DNA of 64,000 bases from Dictyostelium discoideum (Eukaryota). Positions 45,543 through 55,674 of this stretch are shown here, one piece after another. The stretch covers positions 1,216,001 to 1,280,000 of the forward strand of contig CM000153.2 of NCBI GenBank assembly GCA_000004695.1, written 5' to 3'. The notes under the pieces are model-generated. The model was not told where the DNA came from, made no database searches, and saw nothing but the letters and a program-made list of their open reading frames with translations. The position numbers and the translations under genes were made by a program. The first letter of the stretch is position 1, and every line of letters begins with the position of its first letter.

Positions 45543-46994
45543 ATGAATATAAAACTATATGAATTTATAATAAATCCAACAGTCCAAATTTTATTAGTTA
45601 ATGGTGGTGAATTAGTTATTCAAGATAATAATAGTAAAGTTTATTTAAAAGGTATATCAATGGATCAAAGTTTTTTAATACTTTTAACAAGTTTTTACTT
45701 TTTTGGATATACAACTCAAAGTGAACCAAAATTCGATAGTAAAGTCAAATGGTTAAAGGGTAAACTATGTAAGATTCAAAAGAAAATGATAACCTTAAAA
45801 TTAAATATATCAAGTAGAAGTCAAATCCTAATGGAATCAATTCAGGTTTTAAAACAAATAGATCCAAACGATTTAGTATTAAGTAGATTATTCGTTAAAT
45901 TTAATGATGAAGAAGGAATTGATATTGGAGGAATTTCAAAAGAATGGTTTTCAAATTTTAGTGAAGAGTTGGCCAATACTCCATTAAATGGTTATCATTT
46001 ATTTCAAGAATATTCAAATAGTAATAAATACCATCCATCACCTTTCTCAAATTTAATACCAGACTATAGATCAATCTTTAAAACTTTGGGTAGAATTACA
46101 GGTAAATCTATTATAGATAGTATCACCAAAGCTGATAGACACTTTTCACTTAGATTCACCCCAATCTTTTATAAAATGATCTTGGGTGAAAAAATAACTT
46201 TAGATGATTTAGAATTAATTGATCCAGAACTATATAATAATAAAGTCAAATTAATTTTAAATACTCCAATGAATCAAGTTAATGAAATATTAGGTGAACC
46301 ATTATGTTTTGTTTGTGATATTTATAATCAAAATGAATTATTAAAAAGATCATTAAATAATAATAATAATAATGATGAAGATAATAATAAAATTGAAAAT
46401 AATAATAATAATAATAATAGTGAATTTAAAATTCAAATTATGAAAACTATAAATTTAAAACCATTTGGAAATTTAATTAGAGTTACAGATGATAATAAAT
46501 TAGAGTATTTAGAATTATGGGTAAATAGTTTATTTTATAATGGTGTTAAAACTCAAATCGAAGAATATAGAGAAGGTTTATTTCAAATGATACCACATTC
46601 AATTTTATCAATTTTCAATTGGAAAGAATTAGAAATGTTAATTTGTGGAAGAGAAAGAATTAATTTAGACGATTTGAAGCAACATTCTTCATTCACTGGT
46701 TACTTTAATCAAACACTAATCGATGAATTTTGGTTAATTGTTAACGGTTTCAATGAGGATGAAAAGAAATCATTAATTAAATTTGTCACTGGTTCTTCAT
46801 CGGTTCCATTGGGTGGTTTCTATCAACTTTGTCCTCATTTCACTATTAATTTAACACCACCAATTCAAAATGGTGTAAATAGATTACCAATATCTCACAC
46901 TTGTTTCAATAGATTAGATATTCCAATTAATTGTTTATCTTTTAAAAATTTAAAACTAGCAATCACTGAAGGAGATGGTTTCTCTTTGGTTTAA
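45543..46994 (+). CDS. HECT-domain E3 ubiquitin-protein ligase (483 aa), single exon.
   Basis: C-terminal HECT catalytic region …VTGSSSVPLGGFYQL.P.FTI……LPISHTCFNRLDIPINCLSFKNLKLAITEGDGFSLV* with the active-site Cys in the HTCFN context. The conserved HECT N-lobe lies upstream (…LEYLELWVNSLFYNGVKTQIEEYREGLFQMIP…). An in-frame TAG directly upstream of the first exon precludes fusion with the filamin gene. Confidence 0.8.
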   Translation: MNIKLYEFIINPTVQILLVNGGELVIQDNNSKVYLKGISMDQSFLILLTSFYFFGYTTQSEPKFDSKVKWLKGKLCKIQKKMITLKLNISSRSQILMESIQVLKQIDPNDLVLSRLFVKFNDEEGIDIGGISKEWFSNFSEELANTPLNGYHLFQEYSNSNKYHPSPFSNLIPDYRSIFKTLGRITGKSIIDSITKADRHFSLRFTPIFYKMILGEKITLDDLELIDPELYNNKVKLILNTPMNQVNEILGEPLCFVCDIYNQNELLKRSLNNNNNNDEDNNKIENNNNNNNSEFKIQIMKTINLKPFGNLIRVTDDNKLEYLELWVNSLFYNGVKTQIEEYREGLFQMIPHSILSIFNWKELEMLICGRERINLDDLKQHSSFTGYFNQTLIDEFWLIVNGFNEDEKKSLIKFVTGSSSVPLGGFYQLCPHFTINLTPPIQNGVNRLPISHTCFNRLDIPINCLSFKNLKLAITEGDGFSLV

Positions 46995-47488: not shown

Positions 47489-49251
47489 ATGGCATTAAAA
47501 TATAATGATATTGAAGAAAGGGAAGAAATCAAGGATGATTTAGATAGATATGTTGATGGTGCATCTAGTGAAAATAATAATAATAATAATGTAATAATAA
47601 CATCTTCAGTAGAATATAAAGATATAAATGATAATTATCAAGATGTTAAATTAAATGATATAAATAATAATAGTAATAATAATAAAAGTAATAATAATAA
47701 TTATAATAATAATAGTGATGATTATTATATAAATAAAAGTATAATATCAAGATTATATTATTTTTTTAAAGATCAACCATCATCATTGTATAATACAATT
47801 CATTGTGCAATTGGTTTTCTTTTTATATTTTTAGGTTATTCCCCAACTCAAAGTTTAATAACAAATTTACACGAAAATAATGGTTCTATTGGGTTAGGAT
47901 TACTATATTTTTCATTTGCAATTGGTTGTTTTATAGCACCAGTAGTTTTAAAGAAAATTGGGTTAATGTAAGTAAGAAAAGAATAATATCTTTATTTTTT
48001 TTAAATTTATTTAAGTTTTAAAATTTTTTAACATATGTCATCTGATGAAATTAAAAAATAAAAGTAAATCTTTAACAATAGCAGGAATAACATATGCAAT
48101 TTTTATATTTTGTTCAATTACAGGTGTGAGTGTATTGGAAGGATTGTTTTTACCAGCATCAATATTGATTGGATTCGGTGCTGGTTTATTATGGACAAGT
48201 CAACCAGTTTATGTTTCAAGAAATGCACCAACTGAAAAAGAGTTGGGACTTTATTCAGGTATGTTTCAAACGGTTTATTCAATGGGTTCAATCGTAGGAA
48301 ATGCTATTAGTGGTACCTTACAAAATCAAGATGTAGATCCAACAATCATTTTATTGATTTTAGGTTCTTCCACACTTTGTGGTTGTATTTTATTAGCATT
48401 CTTAAGAAGAGTTGACCCAATTGTACCAACACCAAGAAAATCTTTCTCAAAAACATTTACTGGTGCATTTATGGTATTTAAAGATAGAAAATTTCTATTT
48501 TTAATTCCATTATTAATTGTACAAGGTCAATCGTAAGTTTTTTTTTTTTTTTTAAATTTTATAGTATATACTAATTTCTTTATTTTATAGTCAAAGTTAT
48601 TTTTATGAAACATTTAATGGTATAATAGGATTAGGTAGAATTGGTTATATTAGTGTTACAATGGGTATTGTTTCAGTTATTGGTTCAAGCGTTTGGGGTA
48701 GAGTTCATGATAAATTGAAAAATGGTAAAAGAATATTAGCATTGATAATGGGTGTTTTATATTTATTATCATTGACATTATTATCAGTGGCATACTACTT
48801 TGATGAAATTCCAATGTTTTATGTAATAGCTGCATTGAATGGTTTATTTGACTCTTTGCAAACAATTTTAATTTTTGTTACAATTGCTTCTCTTTATCCA
48901 AATGATAATGTTTCTGCATTTTCTGCATCAAGATTTTTAATGTCAATTTCAACGGGTATTGCTTTCTTTGTTTTCCATTATCTCAATTTCTTTGTAGTAA
49001 TATTTTGGATTTTAGCTTTATTAATTGTTGCTGAAATTTGTTTCCATAATTTACTTCAAGATATAAAATCAATAGTTAAATTACCAAATGATGATGATTA
49101 TGATACTCATACTGATATAAATAAATTTAATCTTCCAAATCAAAATTACAAAAACAATAATAACAATAATAATAACAATAATGAAGATGGTTATGAATTA
49201 GAATATGATGATACTGAAAGTAATTTATCATATGATGATAATAAAATTTAA
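47489..49251 (+). CDS. UNC93-like/MFSD11-like major-facilitator membrane protein (~535 aa), 3 exons: 47489..47967, 48065..48532 and 48591..49251.
   Basis: Donors GTAAGT at 47968 and 48533. Acceptors ..AAAAG at 48064 and TTTTATAG at 48590. Phases 2 and 2. There are ≥10 predicted TM helices. Conserved UNC93/MFSD11 blocks: LGYSPTQSLITNLHEN, LLWTSQPVYVS, LGLYSGMFQTVYSMGSIVGNAI. Asn-rich N- and C-terminal tails. Confidence 0.75.
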
Positions 49252-49346: not shown

Positions 49347-51125
49347 TTACTCAATTAATTTAAATGTGAAACATAATACACCTTTTTCTAATACTACTTC
49401 TGGGTTCTTTGGATGATAATTGTTTGGAATGTTGAGTATGAGTTCAAATGAACCATCACGTCTTTGATTATTTGAAAGGTATAATGATGTTTCTTCACTT
49501 GGGTAGCCACTTTCTGAATTTTTCATGTCAAATTGTAACTTTTTAACACCTTTGACAATTAGATTCCATTTTGTATTTTCATACTTTGTTTCATGGAAAA
49601 TTTCATCCAATACCATTTGAGGAACTTCAATAAGGTAACGTAAATCACTACCAACTTTTACAATATCATAGTTTGGTCTGAATCCATTCCAAAATACCAT
49701 TTGTAAACCAATAAATTCAACTTTGTTATCTATTAATTTAAATTCATTTTCCCTATTACTATCATTTTCTGGATATATTTTGAAAACTGGTATTTGAGAA
49801 ATTGTAGTTTTATGTGGAGTAACTTTTTCATAAATTTCTGTAAGTTCTTTTAAGTGCACTGAAAATTCACCAGATTCTTTGTCAAATAAGATTTTACCAT
49901 TTTCTTTATTGCAATTTTCAATGATTTTATCATCTTTTGTAAATTCGCTAATCTTTAGTTTTGATGGTGATTTACAATATGAAACCATATTATTTTGAAG
50001 TCCACTTAATAAAACTTTATCAAAATCCAATTTGTCATTATATTCTTTATTTGTTGATCTGATTTTTTCAATTGTTAAATCATTGTATTTTTTACCAAAT
50101 TCTGAATTATCATTACATAAAAAGAAATGATAACTATTGTTTACAGATTCTGTAAAAAATAATACAACTTCATCTTTACTTTTGATTGTTTTAAAATCAA
50201 TTTGATGGTGAAAAGTTCCATTAAATGGGTGATCCATATATGTTTTAATTTCAACCAATAGCTCCTCCATTGAATTGATTTTTGGATAGTTATGAACAAT
50301 TATTAATGTTTTGTTTATTTTTTGTTCTGTTCTTAATGATTGAATTTTTGATTGAAGTGCCAAGATAAATCTTTGATCAGTCCATGTGAGTTCATTTAAA
50401 ACATAAACAATGGTATTTGCTAATGAAAATGACATATCACGAATAAACATTTCAGTGGATTCTTTTCTTGCCAATTGTTCCTCTGATCTATTTTCACCAA
50501 CTTTTAATGAAGTATTTGAACCGGCTGTATCAATTGTAATTGTTTCATTATTGTGGCAAATTGAAAGTGATAATCCAATGGTTTGTGATTGAGTTCCACT
50601 TGGTAAATATGAATTATTGTATTTATTGATAAAGAATGTTTTACCAATATTAAAACAACCTAAACATGCAAGAGTTGAGTATTTTTTAAATTCTGCAAAT
50701 AATGAATTAAATGGTTCTAAAGGGTTAAAACCATTTGGTCCATTCATTTTTTCTTTTAATTTTTGAGAAAGAAAAATTAACCATGCTGTTTCTTTTTGTG
50801 AAAAATAATCAACTGCTGGAATATCAATAATTATATCATACTCCTTAATACCATTTTCTGGAATTGTAGTTTTGCCAATGTAACAATTTAATTTCTTTGA
50901 AAGTTCATTATTATGTTTTTCCAATTGTTCAATAATTTTCAAATATTCTTCCTCTTTAACTCTATGATTTTTAATATCATTTTCTAAATTTTTATTTCTT
51001 TTATATACCTTTGCCGATTCTTCCTGGTTTTTTTTTAAAATAACCTCAAGTTCTTTTCCACTAAGTATATAACCAAGTATTGATGGTAAACGAATGTCCT
51101 GAGGAACTAATAAATTTGATGCCAT
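49347..51125 (-). CDS. Paralogue A: P-loop GTPase domain (MMR_HSR1/AIG1-like) fused to a C-terminal alpha-crystallin/HSP20-like domain. 592 aa, single exon.
   Basis: N-terminal coiled coil. G1 motif LACLGCFNIGKTFFINK. G2/G3 motifs LPSGTQSQTIG…ETITIDTAG. A long middle region. The C-terminus reads …RPNYDIVKVGSDLRYLIEVPQMVLDEI…WNLIVKGVKK…RRDGSFELILNIPNNYHPKNPEVVLEKGVLCFTFKL, which follows the HSP20 ACD consensus (dlPG…R..G.F.R.f.LP…A…GVL.i…pK). Confidence 0.7.
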   Translation of the reverse strand: MASNLLVPQDIRLPSILGYILSGKELEVILKKNQEESAKVYKRNKNLENDIKNHRVKEEEYLKIIEQLEKHNNELSKKLNCYIGKTTIPENGIKEYDIIIDIPAVDYFSQKETAWLIFLSQKLKEKMNGPNGFNPLEPFNSLFAEFKKYSTLACLGCFNIGKTFFINKYNNSYLPSGTQSQTIGLSLSICHNNETITIDTAGSNTSLKVGENRSEEQLARKESTEMFIRDMSFSLANTIVYVLNELTWTDQRFILALQSKIQSLRTEQKINKTLIIVHNYPKINSMEELLVEIKTYMDHPFNGTFHHQIDFKTIKSKDEVVLFFTESVNNSYHFFLCNDNSEFGKKYNDLTIEKIRSTNKEYNDKLDFDKVLLSGLQNNMVSYCKSPSKLKISEFTKDDKIIENCNKENGKILFDKESGEFSVHLKELTEIYEKVTPHKTTISQIPVFKIYPENDSNRENEFKLIDNKVEFIGLQMVFWNGFRPNYDIVKVGSDLRYLIEVPQMVLDEIFHETKYENTKWNLIVKGVKKLQFDMKNSESGYPSEETSLYLSNNQRRDGSFELILNIPNNYHPKNPEVVLEKGVLCFTFKLIE

Positions 51126-51502
51126 TATTTTTTTTTTTTCAAATTTTTTTTTTTTTTTTTTTATTTTATTTATTAAATTTAATTCAATATAGTTTTTGTT
51201 TATTTTTTTTGTTTTATTTGATTTGATTTTTTTGTTTAAATTAATGAATGAATTTTTAAATATTTATTTTTTATTTAAATTAAGAAAAAAAAATAATGTT
51301 TTTTTAAAAAAAAAACTTAAAAAAAAAACTTAAAAATTTTTTTTAAACAAAACTTAAAAAACTAAATAACACCCTCAACTTAAAAAATATAAGTCAAGAA
51401 AACCTATTTTTTTTTTTTTTTTTTTTTTTTACAAATCATTAATTAAGCAAATAATTATCTCCACCAAAGAGCTTTTTTTTTCAAAAGAAGAACAAAAAAC
51501 CC

Positions 51503-51533
<31 letters not shown>

Positions 51534-51680
51534 AACAAATGATTAATCATTAATTAAGCAAATAATTATCTTGAATTAAGAAAAAAAAAAAAAAAATAAT
51601 ACTATAAGAAATCTATTTTAATTTTTTATTTTTATCTTTATTTAATTTATACCAGTAACTGTGTATATATTTTGATTCAA

Positions 51681-53684
51681 TTATCCTATTTTTTCAAATT
51701 TGAAAGTAATAACGCCTTTATCTAAAGAAACAGCTGGTTTAATAGGTAAATACTCGGTAGGAATTGGTAGTGAGAATTCAAAGAGACCATCACGTCTTTG
51801 ATTTTGAGAAGGACATAATGATGTCAAATTACTTGGATAAACGGTTGTTTGATCATTTGAATCATATCTTAATTTCTTTATTCCTTTTATATTGAGATAC
51901 CATTGGCTACCTAAATGTTTTGTTTCAAATTCGATATCTTCCATTTCTAATTGAGGTACTTCAATGATATATCGTAAATCGGAATTAACTTTAACTATAT
52001 CATGAAATGGTTTGAAACCAGATGAAAAAACCATATTTAAACCAATAATTTCGATTCTATTAGCTATTAACTTAAAATCATTTTCTCTATTACAATCAAT
52101 CTCTGGAGAAATTGTAAATGCTGGTATTTGTTTAATTGAACTTCTATGTGGTGATACCATTTGATGTAACTTACACAATTCCTTTAAATGTTTTGAATAT
52201 TCATCAGTACCAAATGATGTGAACAATGGTTTATATTTTAAACTTGTATTAGCTTCATCAGATTTATTTTCAATATTATCATCCTTTTCATCTTTAATAA
52301 TTGGTTGCAATGGTGATGATGACGATGATGATATTGTTGGTGTTGATACCTCACTACCAGATTTATCATTATCTTGTATAGTATCATCGATGGATGGATG
52401 TAAAAACGATTGAGTTTGAAAAAGACTATCTGCTATTGGTCTTTCTTCAAGCTGTGATTTATTATTACTACTATTATTATTATTAATTTGATTAATAGTT
52501 GGTTCATGTTCAGTAATTTTTAATTTTTTTGGTGATTTACAATATGGTATCATGTTATTTTGAAGTGAAGTTAATAAAACTTTATCTAAATCCAAGTTAT
52601 CATTATAGTTTTTATAAGTTCTAATTTTTTCAATTGTTAATTGATTATATCTTTTACCAAATTCTGAATTATCATTACATAAAAAGAAATGATGGGTTTT
52701 ATTTACAGATTCAACGAAAAATAAAACTATCTCTTCTTTTGATTCTATTTTTTTAATATCAACATGATGATGATGAAAATTACCATTGAATGGAGACTCT
52801 ATATAGGTTTTAATTTCAGATAAAAGTTCTTCTTGTGAATTGACTTTAGGATAATTGTGAACGACTAATAGTTTTTTTATAATATTACTTTCAGATCTTA
52901 ATGATTGAATTTTCGATTGAAGTGCTAAAATAAATCTTTGATCATTCCAAGTTAATTCATTTAAAACGTAAACGATGATACTAGCTAATGAAAATGACAT
53001 ATCACAAATAAACATTTCAGTGGATTCTTTTCTTGCTAAATGCTCTTCGGTTTTATCTTCACAAACTTGTAAAGCAGTATTTGAGCCGGCTGTATCGATA
53101 GTGATGGTTTCGTTAAGACTTGATATTGAGAGTGATAATCCAATGGTTTGTGCTTGAGTTCCACTTGGTAAATAGGTACCATTGTATTTGTTGATAAAGA
53201 ATGTTTTACCTTTATTGAGTACACCTAAACATGCAAGAGTTGAAAACTTTTTATACTCTTTCAATAAGGAATGTAATGGTCTTTTTTTATTGTAGTTTGA
53301 ACTACCCATCTTTTGCTTTAACTGATTTGAAACATAAATTATCCACGATTTACGAGATTGTGATAAATAATCAACAGATGGAATATCAATGATAATATCA
53401 TACTCTCTAATACCATTGGCTGGAATTGAACTATCACCAATATAACAATTCAATTTCTTTGCAAGTTCAATTTTATCTTTATTTAATTTTTCAATCTCTT
53501 TCTTTAGATCTCCAACTTCAACTCTCTTTTTTGTTAATAACCCTTCAAAATTTTTACGTTCATTATCTTGTTTTTTTTTTTTGCTTTCTTTAAGATTTAA
53601 TTTTTCTTTTTTCCTTTTTAAAATTTTTTTAATAATAATGATCAATGTCGTGCATATAATAATGACCAATGTACCAACAAACAT
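51681..53684 (-). CDS. Paralogue B: same GTPase + alpha-crystallin architecture with an N-terminal TM helix. 667 aa, single exon.
   Basis: MFVGTLVIIICTTLIIIIKK (TM), then a coiled coil. G1 motif LACLGVLNKGKTFFINK. G2/G3 motifs LPSGTQAQTIG…ETITIDTAG. ~60% identity to paralogue A across the GTPase and C-terminal domains. A Ser/Asn-rich insert is unique to B. C-terminal ACD: …RRDGLFEFSLPIPTEYLPIKPAVSLDKGVITFKFEKI*. Confidence 0.7.
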   Translation of the reverse strand: MFVGTLVIIICTTLIIIIKKILKRKKEKLNLKESKKKKQDNERKNFEGLLTKKRVEVGDLKKEIEKLNKDKIELAKKLNCYIGDSSIPANGIREYDIIIDIPSVDYLSQSRKSWIIYVSNQLKQKMGSSNYNKKRPLHSLLKEYKKFSTLACLGVLNKGKTFFINKYNGTYLPSGTQAQTIGLSLSISSLNETITIDTAGSNTALQVCEDKTEEHLARKESTEMFICDMSFSLASIIVYVLNELTWNDQRFILALQSKIQSLRSESNIIKKLLVVHNYPKVNSQEELLSEIKTYIESPFNGNFHHHHVDIKKIESKEEIVLFFVESVNKTHHFFLCNDNSEFGKRYNQLTIEKIRTYKNYNDNLDLDKVLLTSLQNNMIPYCKSPKKLKITEHEPTINQINNNNSSNNKSQLEERPIADSLFQTQSFLHPSIDDTIQDNDKSGSEVSTPTISSSSSSPLQPIIKDEKDDNIENKSDEANTSLKYKPLFTSFGTDEYSKHLKELCKLHQMVSPHRSSIKQIPAFTISPEIDCNRENDFKLIANRIEIIGLNMVFSSGFKPFHDIVKVNSDLRYIIEVPQLEMEDIEFETKHLGSQWYLNIKGIKKLRYDSNDQTTVYPSNLTSLCPSQNQRRDGLFEFSLPIPTEYLPIKPAVSLDKGVITFKFEKIG

Positions 53685-54972
53685 TACTAAAAATTTATAA
53701 ATACTTTCTCTTATTTTACTTTTCTACTAACGAAAATATAAAAAGAAATAAAAAAAAAAAAAATTTATTTCTTTATTTATTTATTTTTTTTTTTGGCGAT
53801 TTCAGTTTATTTTAAGTTCTCTTAAAAAACAACTTAAAAAAACAAAGTTTATTTTAATTTCTTAAGTTGCACGTCTAGAAACTAAGGGTGGTAGGATGCA
53901 AAAATTTTAACATAAATTGTGAAAGTAATTTTATCCGCTGGTGGTTTGTTGCATTTTATTTTTTATTTTCTATCCTTACTAGAAACTTTAAATAAATTTT
54001 TTTTAAAAAAATAAGTTTTGTGTTTCGTCAAAAAAAAATAAAAATAAAAATAAAAATAAAAATAAAAATAAATTTTCATACACGCTGTTCAGTATCGTCA
54101 CCAACATTTTCTAAAAAAAAAAAATTTTAATTTGCACCTGATAGATGGCAAACTGTCCAAGAATGTATGAAAATTTTTAATTTGTATTTGGTTAGTGCAA
54201 ATTTTATACACTTTTCAGTATCGTCACCAACATTTTCCTCAAAAAAAAAAACATTGGTAAATTATAAACTTTGTGTGATTAATATTTTTTTTTTTTAATA
54301 ATCCTATTTCAAAATTTGGATTGTCAAAATTTGTACCATATTTTTTTTATTTTTTTTTTATTTTTTTTTATTTTATTTTATTTTTTGAACCTATTAATTT
54401 AATTTTATGTTTTTGTACTATAAAAAACGACAACATTTATTTTGTCATTTTTACATCATTTTTTTAATCATTTTTTTTCGTTGCCAACAAATTCTTTTTA
54501 TATTTTTCACAACCTTTAATTTTCAAAAGGCATTTTTTTTTTTTTCACAAAACAACCAGAAAATTTAAAAACCATCAGCTTTAATTTATTTTTATTTTGG
54601 ATATGAAATTTTTTTGTTTTTTTTTGTTTTTTTTTTAAATTTCCAATAAGAATTCCATTAATAAAATTTGTGAAAAAAAAAAAAAGATTTATTCGCTTCG
54701 TTTTTTATTCTTCTTTATTATTAGTATTAGATTTTTTTTTTTATTAACAATGGTTCTATTAATTGCCACGTCGACAAATTTCCCACCACAGTGACCATCA
54801 AAACAGATTTTTTGTTGAAAAAAAAAAGATATTTTATTTAAAAAAAAAAAAAAAAAAAAAAAACGATGATGATCTTTTTGAAAATTTTTAAAAAGTTATT
54901 AAATTAATTTTTTTTTTTTTTTATTTTTTTATAAAAATTTTTAAAATCTAAATACAAATAAATAAATAAATA

Positions 54973-55674
54973 ATGGACGTTATTAATGATCATTTAACAA
55001 TTGTACTCTGCCATGGATCTTTTACAGGTGCACTTGTATGGCAAAGTGTTATCCCATTCTTAGTTAAAGAAGGTTATAATGTTGTTGCAGTTGATTATCC
55101 AACTAGAGATTTTAATGAAGATGTTGAATACACTAGAAACTTAATTGATCGTCAAGATGGAAATGTATTATTAGTTGGCTATTCATATGGTGGTGCAGTT
55201 GTTACTGAAGCTGGTAAACATGAAAAAGTAGTTGGTATTGTTTATATCGCTGGTTTTGCACTTGATGAAGGTGATAGTTTAGGTAGCATCCTTGGCAGAA
55301 GAGAAGATCAAGGTGCCAATAGCAGAATTCTCGATAGTAAGGGTTTCCTTTGGGTTAAACCAGAAGATTTCAATAAATGTATTTGTCAAGATCTTAGCCA
55401 AGAAGAATCATTAGCAATGTCATTATGCCAAAAACCATTACATCTTTCCATTGTCACCCATACAATGGGTCCAAATCCAGCTTGGAAAAATAAACCAACT
55501 TGGTATCAAATCTCTGATAACGATAGAATGATTCCACAAGAAACTCAAATCGAAATGGTTAATAACATTAAACCAAAGAAAACCATTCATTTAAATTCAA
55601 ACCATGCTTCAATTTCTTCTCATCCAAAAGAAGTTACAGCTTTCATTATTGAAGCTGCTTCAACATTTAAATAA
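54973..55674 (+). CDS. Alpha/beta-hydrolase fold esterase/lipase-like protein (233 aa), single exon.
   Basis: Nucleophile elbow LLVGYSYGGAVV (GxSxG) with upstream HG (LCHGSFTG). There are no low-complexity tracts, and the protein has a compact bacterial-like character. Confidence 0.75.
   Translation: MDVINDHLTIVLCHGSFTGALVWQSVIPFLVKEGYNVVAVDYPTRDFNEDVEYTRNLIDRQDGNVLLVGYSYGGAVVTEAGKHEKVVGIVYIAGFALDEGDSLGSILGRREDQGANSRILDSKGFLWVKPEDFNKCICQDLSQEESLAMSLCQKPLHLSIVTHTMGPNPAWKNKPTWYQISDNDRMIPQETQIEMVNNIKPKKTIHLNSNHASISSHPKEVTAFIIEAASTFK

Follow-up and report, generated by a model that had tools for sequence, protein, structure and literature searches.

The locus and its two genes

The window analysed here is a stretch of 64,000 nucleotides of Dictyostelium discoideum (contig CM000153.2, positions 1,216,001 to 1,280,000), and it carries two tandem minus-strand genes whose products join a large G domain to a C-terminal alpha-crystallin domain (ACD), the domain of the small heat shock proteins (sHSPs). 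Gene A is hsp69 and gene B is DDB_G0283913 (Table 1). The window is very AT-rich, with a guanine plus cytosine (GC) content of 13-30%, and no tRNA genes were found between 47 and 56 kb. Both genes are continuous open reading frames (ORFs), as a first-pass annotation made from the letters of the window had stated, and their translations are identical from end to end to the public D. discoideum AX4 proteins XP_638795.1 and XP_638796.1. Therefore, the single-exon gene models hold and chance ORFs are excluded. In the public annotation, A is an "HSP20-like chaperone domain-containing protein" and B is "Heat shock protein DDB_G0283913".

The order of parts in A is coiled coil, GBP-like G domain, linker and ACD, and B has the same order with an N-terminal transmembrane (TM) anchor and a Ser/Asn-rich insert in the linker. 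The layout proposed in the first-pass annotation (a coiled coil, a P-loop GTPase lacking NKxD, a C-terminal ACD and a tandem duplication) was borne out on each point tested, and the motifs that it quoted (GCFNIGKT / GVLNKGKT, LPSGTQ.QTIG and ITIDTAG) are all found in A and B. The TM helix and the insert had been described for B alone, and this is what was observed. The first 19 residues of B (MFVGTLVIIICTTLIIIIK) have a 19-residue Kyte-Doolittle mean of 2.54, and no such segment is present in A. The insert (S 18%, N 11%) lies between the G domain and the ACD, and its counterpart in A is a low-confidence linker in the AlphaFold2 (AF2) model. The N-terminal TM helix is also predicted in the B-type orthologues P0007 and P0008 and in the P0013 and P0014 proteins of a third dictyostelid lineage.

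The AF2 model of A was built from a 139-sequence alignment, with a mean predicted local distance difference test (pLDDT) of 87.8 and a predicted template modelling score (pTM) of 0.78. It replaced an earlier run on 11 sequences, whose model was unusable in the G domain (pLDDT 52). Regarding the long N-terminal helix of A, its pairing as a coiled coil is probable.

Table 1. Features of genes A and B, with positions counted from the first letter of the window
Feature	Residues	Position	Strand	Description or basis
Gene A (hsp69 / DDB_G0283911 / Q54QE9 / XP_638795.1)		49347..51125	minus	single-exon ORF, 592 aa
A, long single helix, probable coiled coil	~23-83	50877..51059	minus	AF2 helix 23-83, pLDDT 75-96
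A, large G domain	~95-395	49941..50841	minus
A, ACD	~486-592	49350..49670	minus
Gene B (DDB_G0283913 / Q54QE8 / XP_638796.1)		51681..53684	minus	single-exon ORF, 667 aa
B, predicted N-terminal TM / signal-anchor helix	1-19	53628..53684	minus	Kyte-Doolittle
B, Ser/Asn-rich low-complexity insert	~393-492	52209..52508	minus	alignment gap in A and A-type orthologues
B, C-terminal domain homologous to the ACD region of A	~530-667	51684..52097	minus	54% identity to the A C-terminus

The C-terminal alpha-crystallin domain

The C-terminal domain is confirmed by the family profile and by structure as a real but divergent ACD. In the AF2 model of A it forms the beta-sandwich of the ACD fold, with strands at residues 486-491, 494-500, 509-516, 519-528, 558-566, 576-580 and 583-590, and in structure it resembles sHSPs and not the CS/p23 adaptor domains. 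A shallow, Dictyostelium-dominated profile of seven C-terminal sequences gave only four matches among the PDB sequences, all of them sHSPs (best E-value 0.0014). The profile of 32 family ACDs matched about 30 solved sHSPs over the whole domain, with a best E-value of 3.1e-12, and 9 of these 32 ACDs matched PF00011 individually (best E-value 7.1e-13). The ACD profile also covers residues 530-666 of B (E-value 1e-68).

The two proteins of the window behave differently in direct searches: no match to Pfam HSP20 (PF00011) was obtained with full-length A or B at E <= 1, the ACD of A scanned alone against Pfam matched 0 families, and phmmer with A against the PDB sequences returned only noise. They fail PF00011 because their ACDs are too divergent. 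Hence, the HSP20-type domain claimed in the first-pass annotation stands on the family profile and on the structural matches, and the PF00011 match that it expected does not appear in A and B themselves.

Concerning the comparison with the sHSPs, the signature residues P..(Y/D), E.P(G/Q), I.G.K, R..G.F and GVL are retained in the ACDs of the A/B family. However, sHSPs are proteins of 12-43 kDa versus 69-77 kDa for A and B, they carry a disordered N-terminal region where A and B have an NTPase, and they are nucleotide-independent by definition. sHSPs also have a C-terminal extension with an IxI motif, whereas A and B stop directly after the last ACD strand (...GVLCFTFKLIE / ...GVITFKFEKIG).

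A large G domain of the GBP/atlastin type

Between the coiled coil and the linker lies a large G domain of the GBP/atlastin/SMG9/RNF112 type. The P-loop GTPase seen in the first pass is thus real, but it is not of the AIG1 type, one of the two matches expected there, and MMR_HSR1, the other, is sub-threshold in A and exceeds the threshold only in homologues. In fact, the Pfam and NCBIfam libraries gave nothing above threshold for A and B, the MMR_HSR1 match of A reaching just E = 0.012. MMR_HSR1 is the commonest Pfam match among the homologues, and both MMR_HSR1 and GBP are above the Pfam gathering scores in homologues from Acytostelium, Synstelium and one metagenome. The GBP scores of P0034, P0043 and P0046 are 27.2, 22.6 and 29.2 bits (cut-off 21.1; A and B are below it), and these matches cover only the region from G1 to G3.

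When the full-length 139-sequence profile was compared with solved structures, GBP1, GBP2 and GBP5 were matched at positions ~103-189, from G1 to G3, with E-values of ~1e-7, followed by Der, Arl6, HflX and Era. The sHSPs were matched at positions ~415-528, a region disjoint from the GTPase matches. No sequence-profile match to SMG9 was found among the PDB matches listed.

In the structure comparison, SMG9 scored 14.9, the GBP2 G domain 13.4, GBP1 13.0, RNF112 12.6, atlastin-1/3 12.2, Sey1 11.7 and SMG8 11.5, and EngB, the Era-type GTPase 1wf3 and GIMAP7 scored 11.2, 10.9 and 10.2, respectively. The lead over small GTPases is modest, but the aligned lengths are longer (200-235 versus 146-183 residues), as would be expected if elements of a large G domain are shared. 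SMG9 and SMG8 are G-fold subunits of the SMG1 kinase complex, with only 11-12% sequence identity, and SMG9 differs further in having neither ACD nor coiled coil and in being a heterodimeric scaffold in nonsense-mediated decay.

The fold is closest to the GBP/atlastin class. The GBP/atlastin/Sey1/RNF112 proteins and the A/B family share the large G domain with an N-terminal hairpin and helix before beta1, in A with the conserved residues Y96, D97 and W115. Furthermore, the G1-G3 spacing and pattern (GxxxxGKS.L.NkL ... T.G(I/L) ... (L)LD(T/S)xG) are the same in this branch, NKxD is missing, some members carry a membrane anchor and, as mentioned above, Pfam GBP is above threshold in three homologues. 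On the other hand, GBPs have a catalytic Arg at P-loop position 4 and the family has Asn, the G4 motif is Arg-Asp there and an invariant His-Asn here, and the helical stalk or three-helix-bundle middle domain of that branch is replaced by the ACD. In A, the G domain is followed by a linker and then by the all-beta ACD, and the elongated C-terminal helical domain of GBPs is absent. Moreover, A and B carry an N-terminal coiled coil and miss the Pfam GBP threshold.

Active site and potassium signature

Conservation of the active site was counted over 139 aligned family members, in the numbering of A. The landmarks are G1 from G156 to T163, including N159, with N167 close behind it, T182 and G184 in switch I, D199 to G202 in G3, and G344. 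In the P-loop, G156 is found in 137 members and G161, K162 and S/T163 in 138 each. In switch I, T182 and G184 are invariant (139/139) and S186 is found in 136. D199 and G202 of G3 are conserved in 138 and 136, and outside these motifs Q251 (139), H278 (138), N279 (139), H333 (138) and N348 (136) are likewise conserved. The features of a TRAFAC GTPase (Walker A GxxxxGK[ST], the switch I Thr and the G3 DxxG) are all present and at least 98% conserved.

No [NT]KxD motif occurs in either A or B, which agrees with the first-pass statement that a canonical G4 is lacking, and the family has its own His-Asn instead. The strand 273-279 of A ends in I/V-H-N, at the spot of NKxD in Ras-like GTPases and of RD in GBPs, and the His-Asn of this end is the invariant part. 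H278-N279 is thus probably equivalent to the G4 or GBP RD position, judging from its place at the strand end and not from a superposition. A change from Asp to Asn in NKxD moves the specificity toward xanthine nucleotides (PMC3466195). With this precedent and with His-Asn in place of NKxD, the nucleotide used cannot be read from the sequence.

At residue 159, which is P-loop position 4, most of the 139 members carry Asn (121) and a few Asp (12) or Lys (3), and Arg is never among the five commonest residues there. Neither the arginine finger of GBPs (GxxRxGKS) nor their (T/S)(L/V)RD G4 was found in the family alignment. The Asn at this position belongs to the signature of K+-activated GTPases, which consists of GxxNxGK[ST] plus a second Asn at Lys+5; in MnmE and FeoB the G1 Asn contacts K+ and the Asn at Lys+5 steadies the K-loop (PMC3466195). 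Both Asn residues are present in A (GCFNIGKTFFIN) and in B (GVLNKGKTFFIN), as in the K+-activated TEES/HAS-type GTPases (MnmE, FeoB, Der/EngA, Era, EngB), which belong to Pfam MMR_HSR1. However, the G domains of these enzymes are small and contain a canonical NKxD as G4, and none of them has an ACD.

A protist family with a conserved fusion

The profile search was exhaustive over 1.84 billion representatives, and family size was counted in clusters at 50% identity. At E <= 1e-3 it recovered 1,440 clusters, and the stricter cut-offs of 1e-10 and 1e-30 left 874 and 140. The G domain is present in all the 152 representatives in hand and the ACD in 103 of them, always C-terminal to the G domain (103/103). 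In 118 members the G domain is followed by 150 residues or more, and 100 of these members have the ACD. The fusion of G domain and ACD is under selection. The first-pass annotation had considered such a fusion non-standard for eukaryotes. It is indeed unusual for model eukaryotes, but throughout a large family of protist proteins this arrangement is the norm.

The named sources are D. purpureum (annotated as "G domain-containing protein"), Acytostelium, Synstelium, the chlorarachniophytes Gymnochlora and Partenskyella and the euglenid Ploeotia. The largest branch of the family is metagenomic, with the P-loop GNSNKGKS. In rumen-type metagenomes at least 373 relatives were confirmed (373 among the 600 pattern matches examined). 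No bacterial or archaeal member was confirmed among 157 matches to two peptide patterns in one genome for each of 185,579 prokaryotic species, a scan that was not exhaustive.

The contigs of the ciliate branch were described from 81 sequences, namely the best 80 of the metagenome scan and one further contig, L001. Their median length is 2.4 kb and their median GC content 21.7%, and (CCCCAAT)n repeats are found on 55 of them, at one end in 31 and at both ends in 24. This repeat has been reported as the telomere of the macronuclear chromosomes of rumen ciliates (bioRxiv 10.1101/2022.01.05.474053). The family is greatly expanded on the nanochromosomes of rumen ciliates. On complete nanochromosomes with two telomeres, a single match covers both domains, and such single-gene chromosomes rule out a gene-fusion artefact.

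Two further observations concern these contigs. The ciliate members (alignment A6, e.g. L001 134-2191) have a conserved N-terminal CxC ... CxC before the coiled coil, possibly zinc-binding, which the Dictyostelium proteins lack. Positions 1-60 of L001 show an inverted telomere duplication (TTGGGGA repeats and then CCCCAAT repeats), probably a palindrome artefact of the assembler.

Duplication and paralogues

By BLASTP, A and B are 67% identical in the N-terminal 365 aa and 54% identical in the C-terminal 174 aa, and about 60-64% identical overall. Tandem A-type and B-type genes are also found in D. firmibasis (RB653_001336 / 001334) and in D. cf. discoideum (ACTFIZ_008646 / 008644). The identity and these pairs support the local duplication suggested in the first pass. 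In the neighbour-joining tree the A and B lineages split near the base of the discoideum group, with the D. firmibasis copies ambiguously placed, and the duplication is not recent. The third dictyostelid lineage, with P0014 from D. purpureum (DICPUDRAFT_99756) and P0013 from D. cf. discoideum (ACTFIY_000981), is ~33% identical to A and B. Apart from its TM helix, it is characterized by a Lys at P-loop position 4 (GYFKRGKT) instead of Asn, which from the sequence could be a built-in lysine finger.

Expression, upstream DNA and neighbouring genes

The ACD half of these proteins is already known from the UniProt and RefSeq annotation, and the literature has the name hsp69 for gene A, in a paper that does not use the word GTPase. 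The GTPase half appears to have been overlooked. A review of the dynamin-superfamily GTPases of Dictyostelium, published in 2021, names eight proteins and a "single GBP homolog", gnbp, and includes neither A nor B (PMC8565484). In the full-text, open-access literature, no published description of the GTPase-ACD fusion was found.

The RNA and protein of hsp69 are reported to be increased in ATG9 and ATG16 knockouts (PMC8204557), and the loss of autophagy is a proteostasis cue. This increase lends only indirect support to the stress induction considered possible in the first-pass annotation. On the other hand, the canonical heat-shock element (nGAAnnTTCnnGAAn, both phases) has one site in the 64 kb, at position 46003, which is the level expected by chance and is not near A or B. 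Therefore, classical heat induction is not indicated.

Regarding the upstream DNA, a 25-mer (GATAATTATTTGCTTAATTAATGAT) occurs in two exact copies at 51435-51459 and 51546-51570 (minus strand), spaced by 111 bp and located ~310 and ~420 bp upstream of the A start codon. None would be expected by chance, and it may be a promoter element of hsp69. Upstream of B (~400-550 bp from its start codon) there are two exact copies of a 24-mer (GAAAATGTTGGTGACGATACTGAA), at 54088-54111 and 54214-54237 (minus strand), spaced by 126 bp and likewise not expected by chance. The two repeats are unlike each other, so the paralogues do not have a common upstream element of this kind.

On the plus strand, successive ORFs of 160, 163 and 196 aa at 47489-49251, convergent with gene A, contain multiple hydrophobic segments and poly-Asn tracts and resemble the exons of a single gene for a multi-pass membrane transporter. 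Divergent from B, at a distance of ~1.3 kb, a 233-aa ORF at 54973-55674 (plus strand) resembles an alpha/beta-hydrolase, with a nucleophile-elbow-like HG...GYSYGG.

Proposed mechanism and alternative explanations

Regarding these data, the best hypothesis is that A and B could be nucleotide-regulated chaperones or oligomerising GTPases. In particular, we lean, with somewhat less than even confidence, to a nucleotide-driven, dimerising assembly switch that would be coupled to an ACD acting as holdase or oligomerisation module. The G domain would bind a nucleotide, most likely GTP, and would hydrolyse it when two identical subunits pair, in a nucleotide-dependent manner, across the active site, a scheme known from GBP, atlastin and the MnmE-type "GAD" GTPases. 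The P-loop Asn would hold a monovalent cation, K+, as a substitute for the arginine finger. The coiled coil would give constitutive pairing, and a flexible linker would join the G domain to the ACD. The attached ACDs would themselves form dimers, and the nucleotide cycle could then alter their valency or how they are spaced. In this way it could act as a switch for building a higher-order scaffold, on which non-native proteins would be bound or sequestered. The site of action would be the cytosol for A and, through its tether, a membrane for B. Of all this, the identity and order of the domains, the conserved nucleotide pocket and the conserved fusion are shown, whereas the choice of nucleotide, the need for K+, the dimerisation, the chaperone activity and any coupling of the two domains are inferred.

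Several results weigh against this switch. A and B miss the Pfam thresholds for HSP20, GBP and MMR_HSR1, and PF00011 is not matched even at E <= 1. At 592 and 667 aa they are far larger than the small subunits of classical sHSPs, and their ACD lacks the C-terminal extension with the IxI motif, so that the canonical sHSP oligomers may not apply. The G4 has no guanine-specifying Asp and its His-Asn leaves the nucleotide specificity open, while other relatives of the G-domain fold use ATP. The first K+ Asn is found in 121 of the 139 members, but the second in only 39. Moreover, SMG9, which matches best in structure, is a scaffold subunit rather than a proven fast hydrolase, and the heat-shock element is missing near both genes.

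Another explanation, possible though on balance unlikely, is that A and B are GBP-like defence or membrane-remodelling GTPases, in which the ACD would take the place of the helical stalk of GBP and atlastin and would serve only for oligomerisation or as an adaptor. They would then act on phagosomes, ingested bacteria or the ER and other endomembranes, and not as chaperones. The kinship of the G domain with GBP, atlastin, Sey1 and RNF112 fits this explanation, and so does the predicted membrane anchor of B, its orthologues and the third lineage, which recalls atlastin and Sey1. The lineages found so far (dictyostelids, gut and rumen ciliates, chlorarachniophytes and a euglenid) are phagotrophs or groups with phagotrophic forms, and the large paralogue expansion behind the at least 373 loci of the rumen-type metagenomes resembles that of immunity GTPase families. 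However, the ACD retains the sHSP signature residues (R..G.F, GVL) and resembles sHSPs rather than CS/p23 adaptors, hsp69 responds to the loss of autophagy, a proteostasis cue, and the arginine finger and the RD motif of GBPs are absent.

A further alternative is an SMG9-like pseudo-enzyme, a nucleotide-binding scaffold in which the nucleotide would be a structural cofactor without a meaningful hydrolysis cycle and the protein a large, constitutive ACD holdase. The lack of both the arginine finger and a canonical G4 would suit such a scaffold, as would the loss of the second K+ Asn in most members. Nevertheless, it seems improbable, since T182 (139/139), D199 (138/139), G202 (136/139), Q251, H278 and N279 are invariant or nearly so, a pattern expected of a working catalytic site and beyond the needs of binding alone, and the first K+ Asn is kept in 121 members. 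Finally, the notion that separate GTPase and sHSP genes, or a chance ORF, have been read as one protein by an annotation or assembly error is effectively refuted. The ORFs are continuous and identical to the reference proteins, the same domain order recurs in 103 independent clusters, one match spans both domains on ciliate single-gene chromosomes with telomeres at both ends, and the pTM of 0.78 describes a coherent multidomain model. Detection of hsp69 at the protein level has also been reported (PMC8204557).

A wider version of the assembly switch can be offered only tentatively, as a conjecture with the odds against it: A and B could be the Dictyostelium members of an undescribed, ancient protist family of nucleotide-driven sHSP machines, in which a K+-activated, dimerising G domain of the GBP/atlastin class would gate ACD assembly or client binding.

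Implications

Both domains are of known kinds and the ACD was already annotated, so the proteins are not categorically new. What appears to be undescribed is their combination, the GBP/atlastin/SMG9-class G domain, the His-Asn substitute of G4, the K+-type P-loop, and how large the family is and where it occurs. A and B would add two members to the published list of large GTPases of Dictyostelium. With the invariant His-Asn that stands where G4 would be, they mark out a subfamily of G domains. They also draw attention to a very large and uncharacterised group of related genes in rumen ciliates.

sHSPs are textbook energy-independent chaperones, and GBP/atlastin-class GTPases are assembly machines powered by nucleotide-dependent dimerisation. 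Their conserved covalent fusion suggests a route to nucleotide control of ACD assembly, and it occurs in a genetically tractable organism in which hsp69 already responds to the loss of autophagy. A nucleotide-driven sHSP machine, if true, would break the rule that ACD holdases work independently of nucleotides, and the expansion in gut ciliates and the presence in phagotrophic lineages could then reflect ways of dealing with microbes, whether ingested or intracellular, or with proteomes prone to aggregation.

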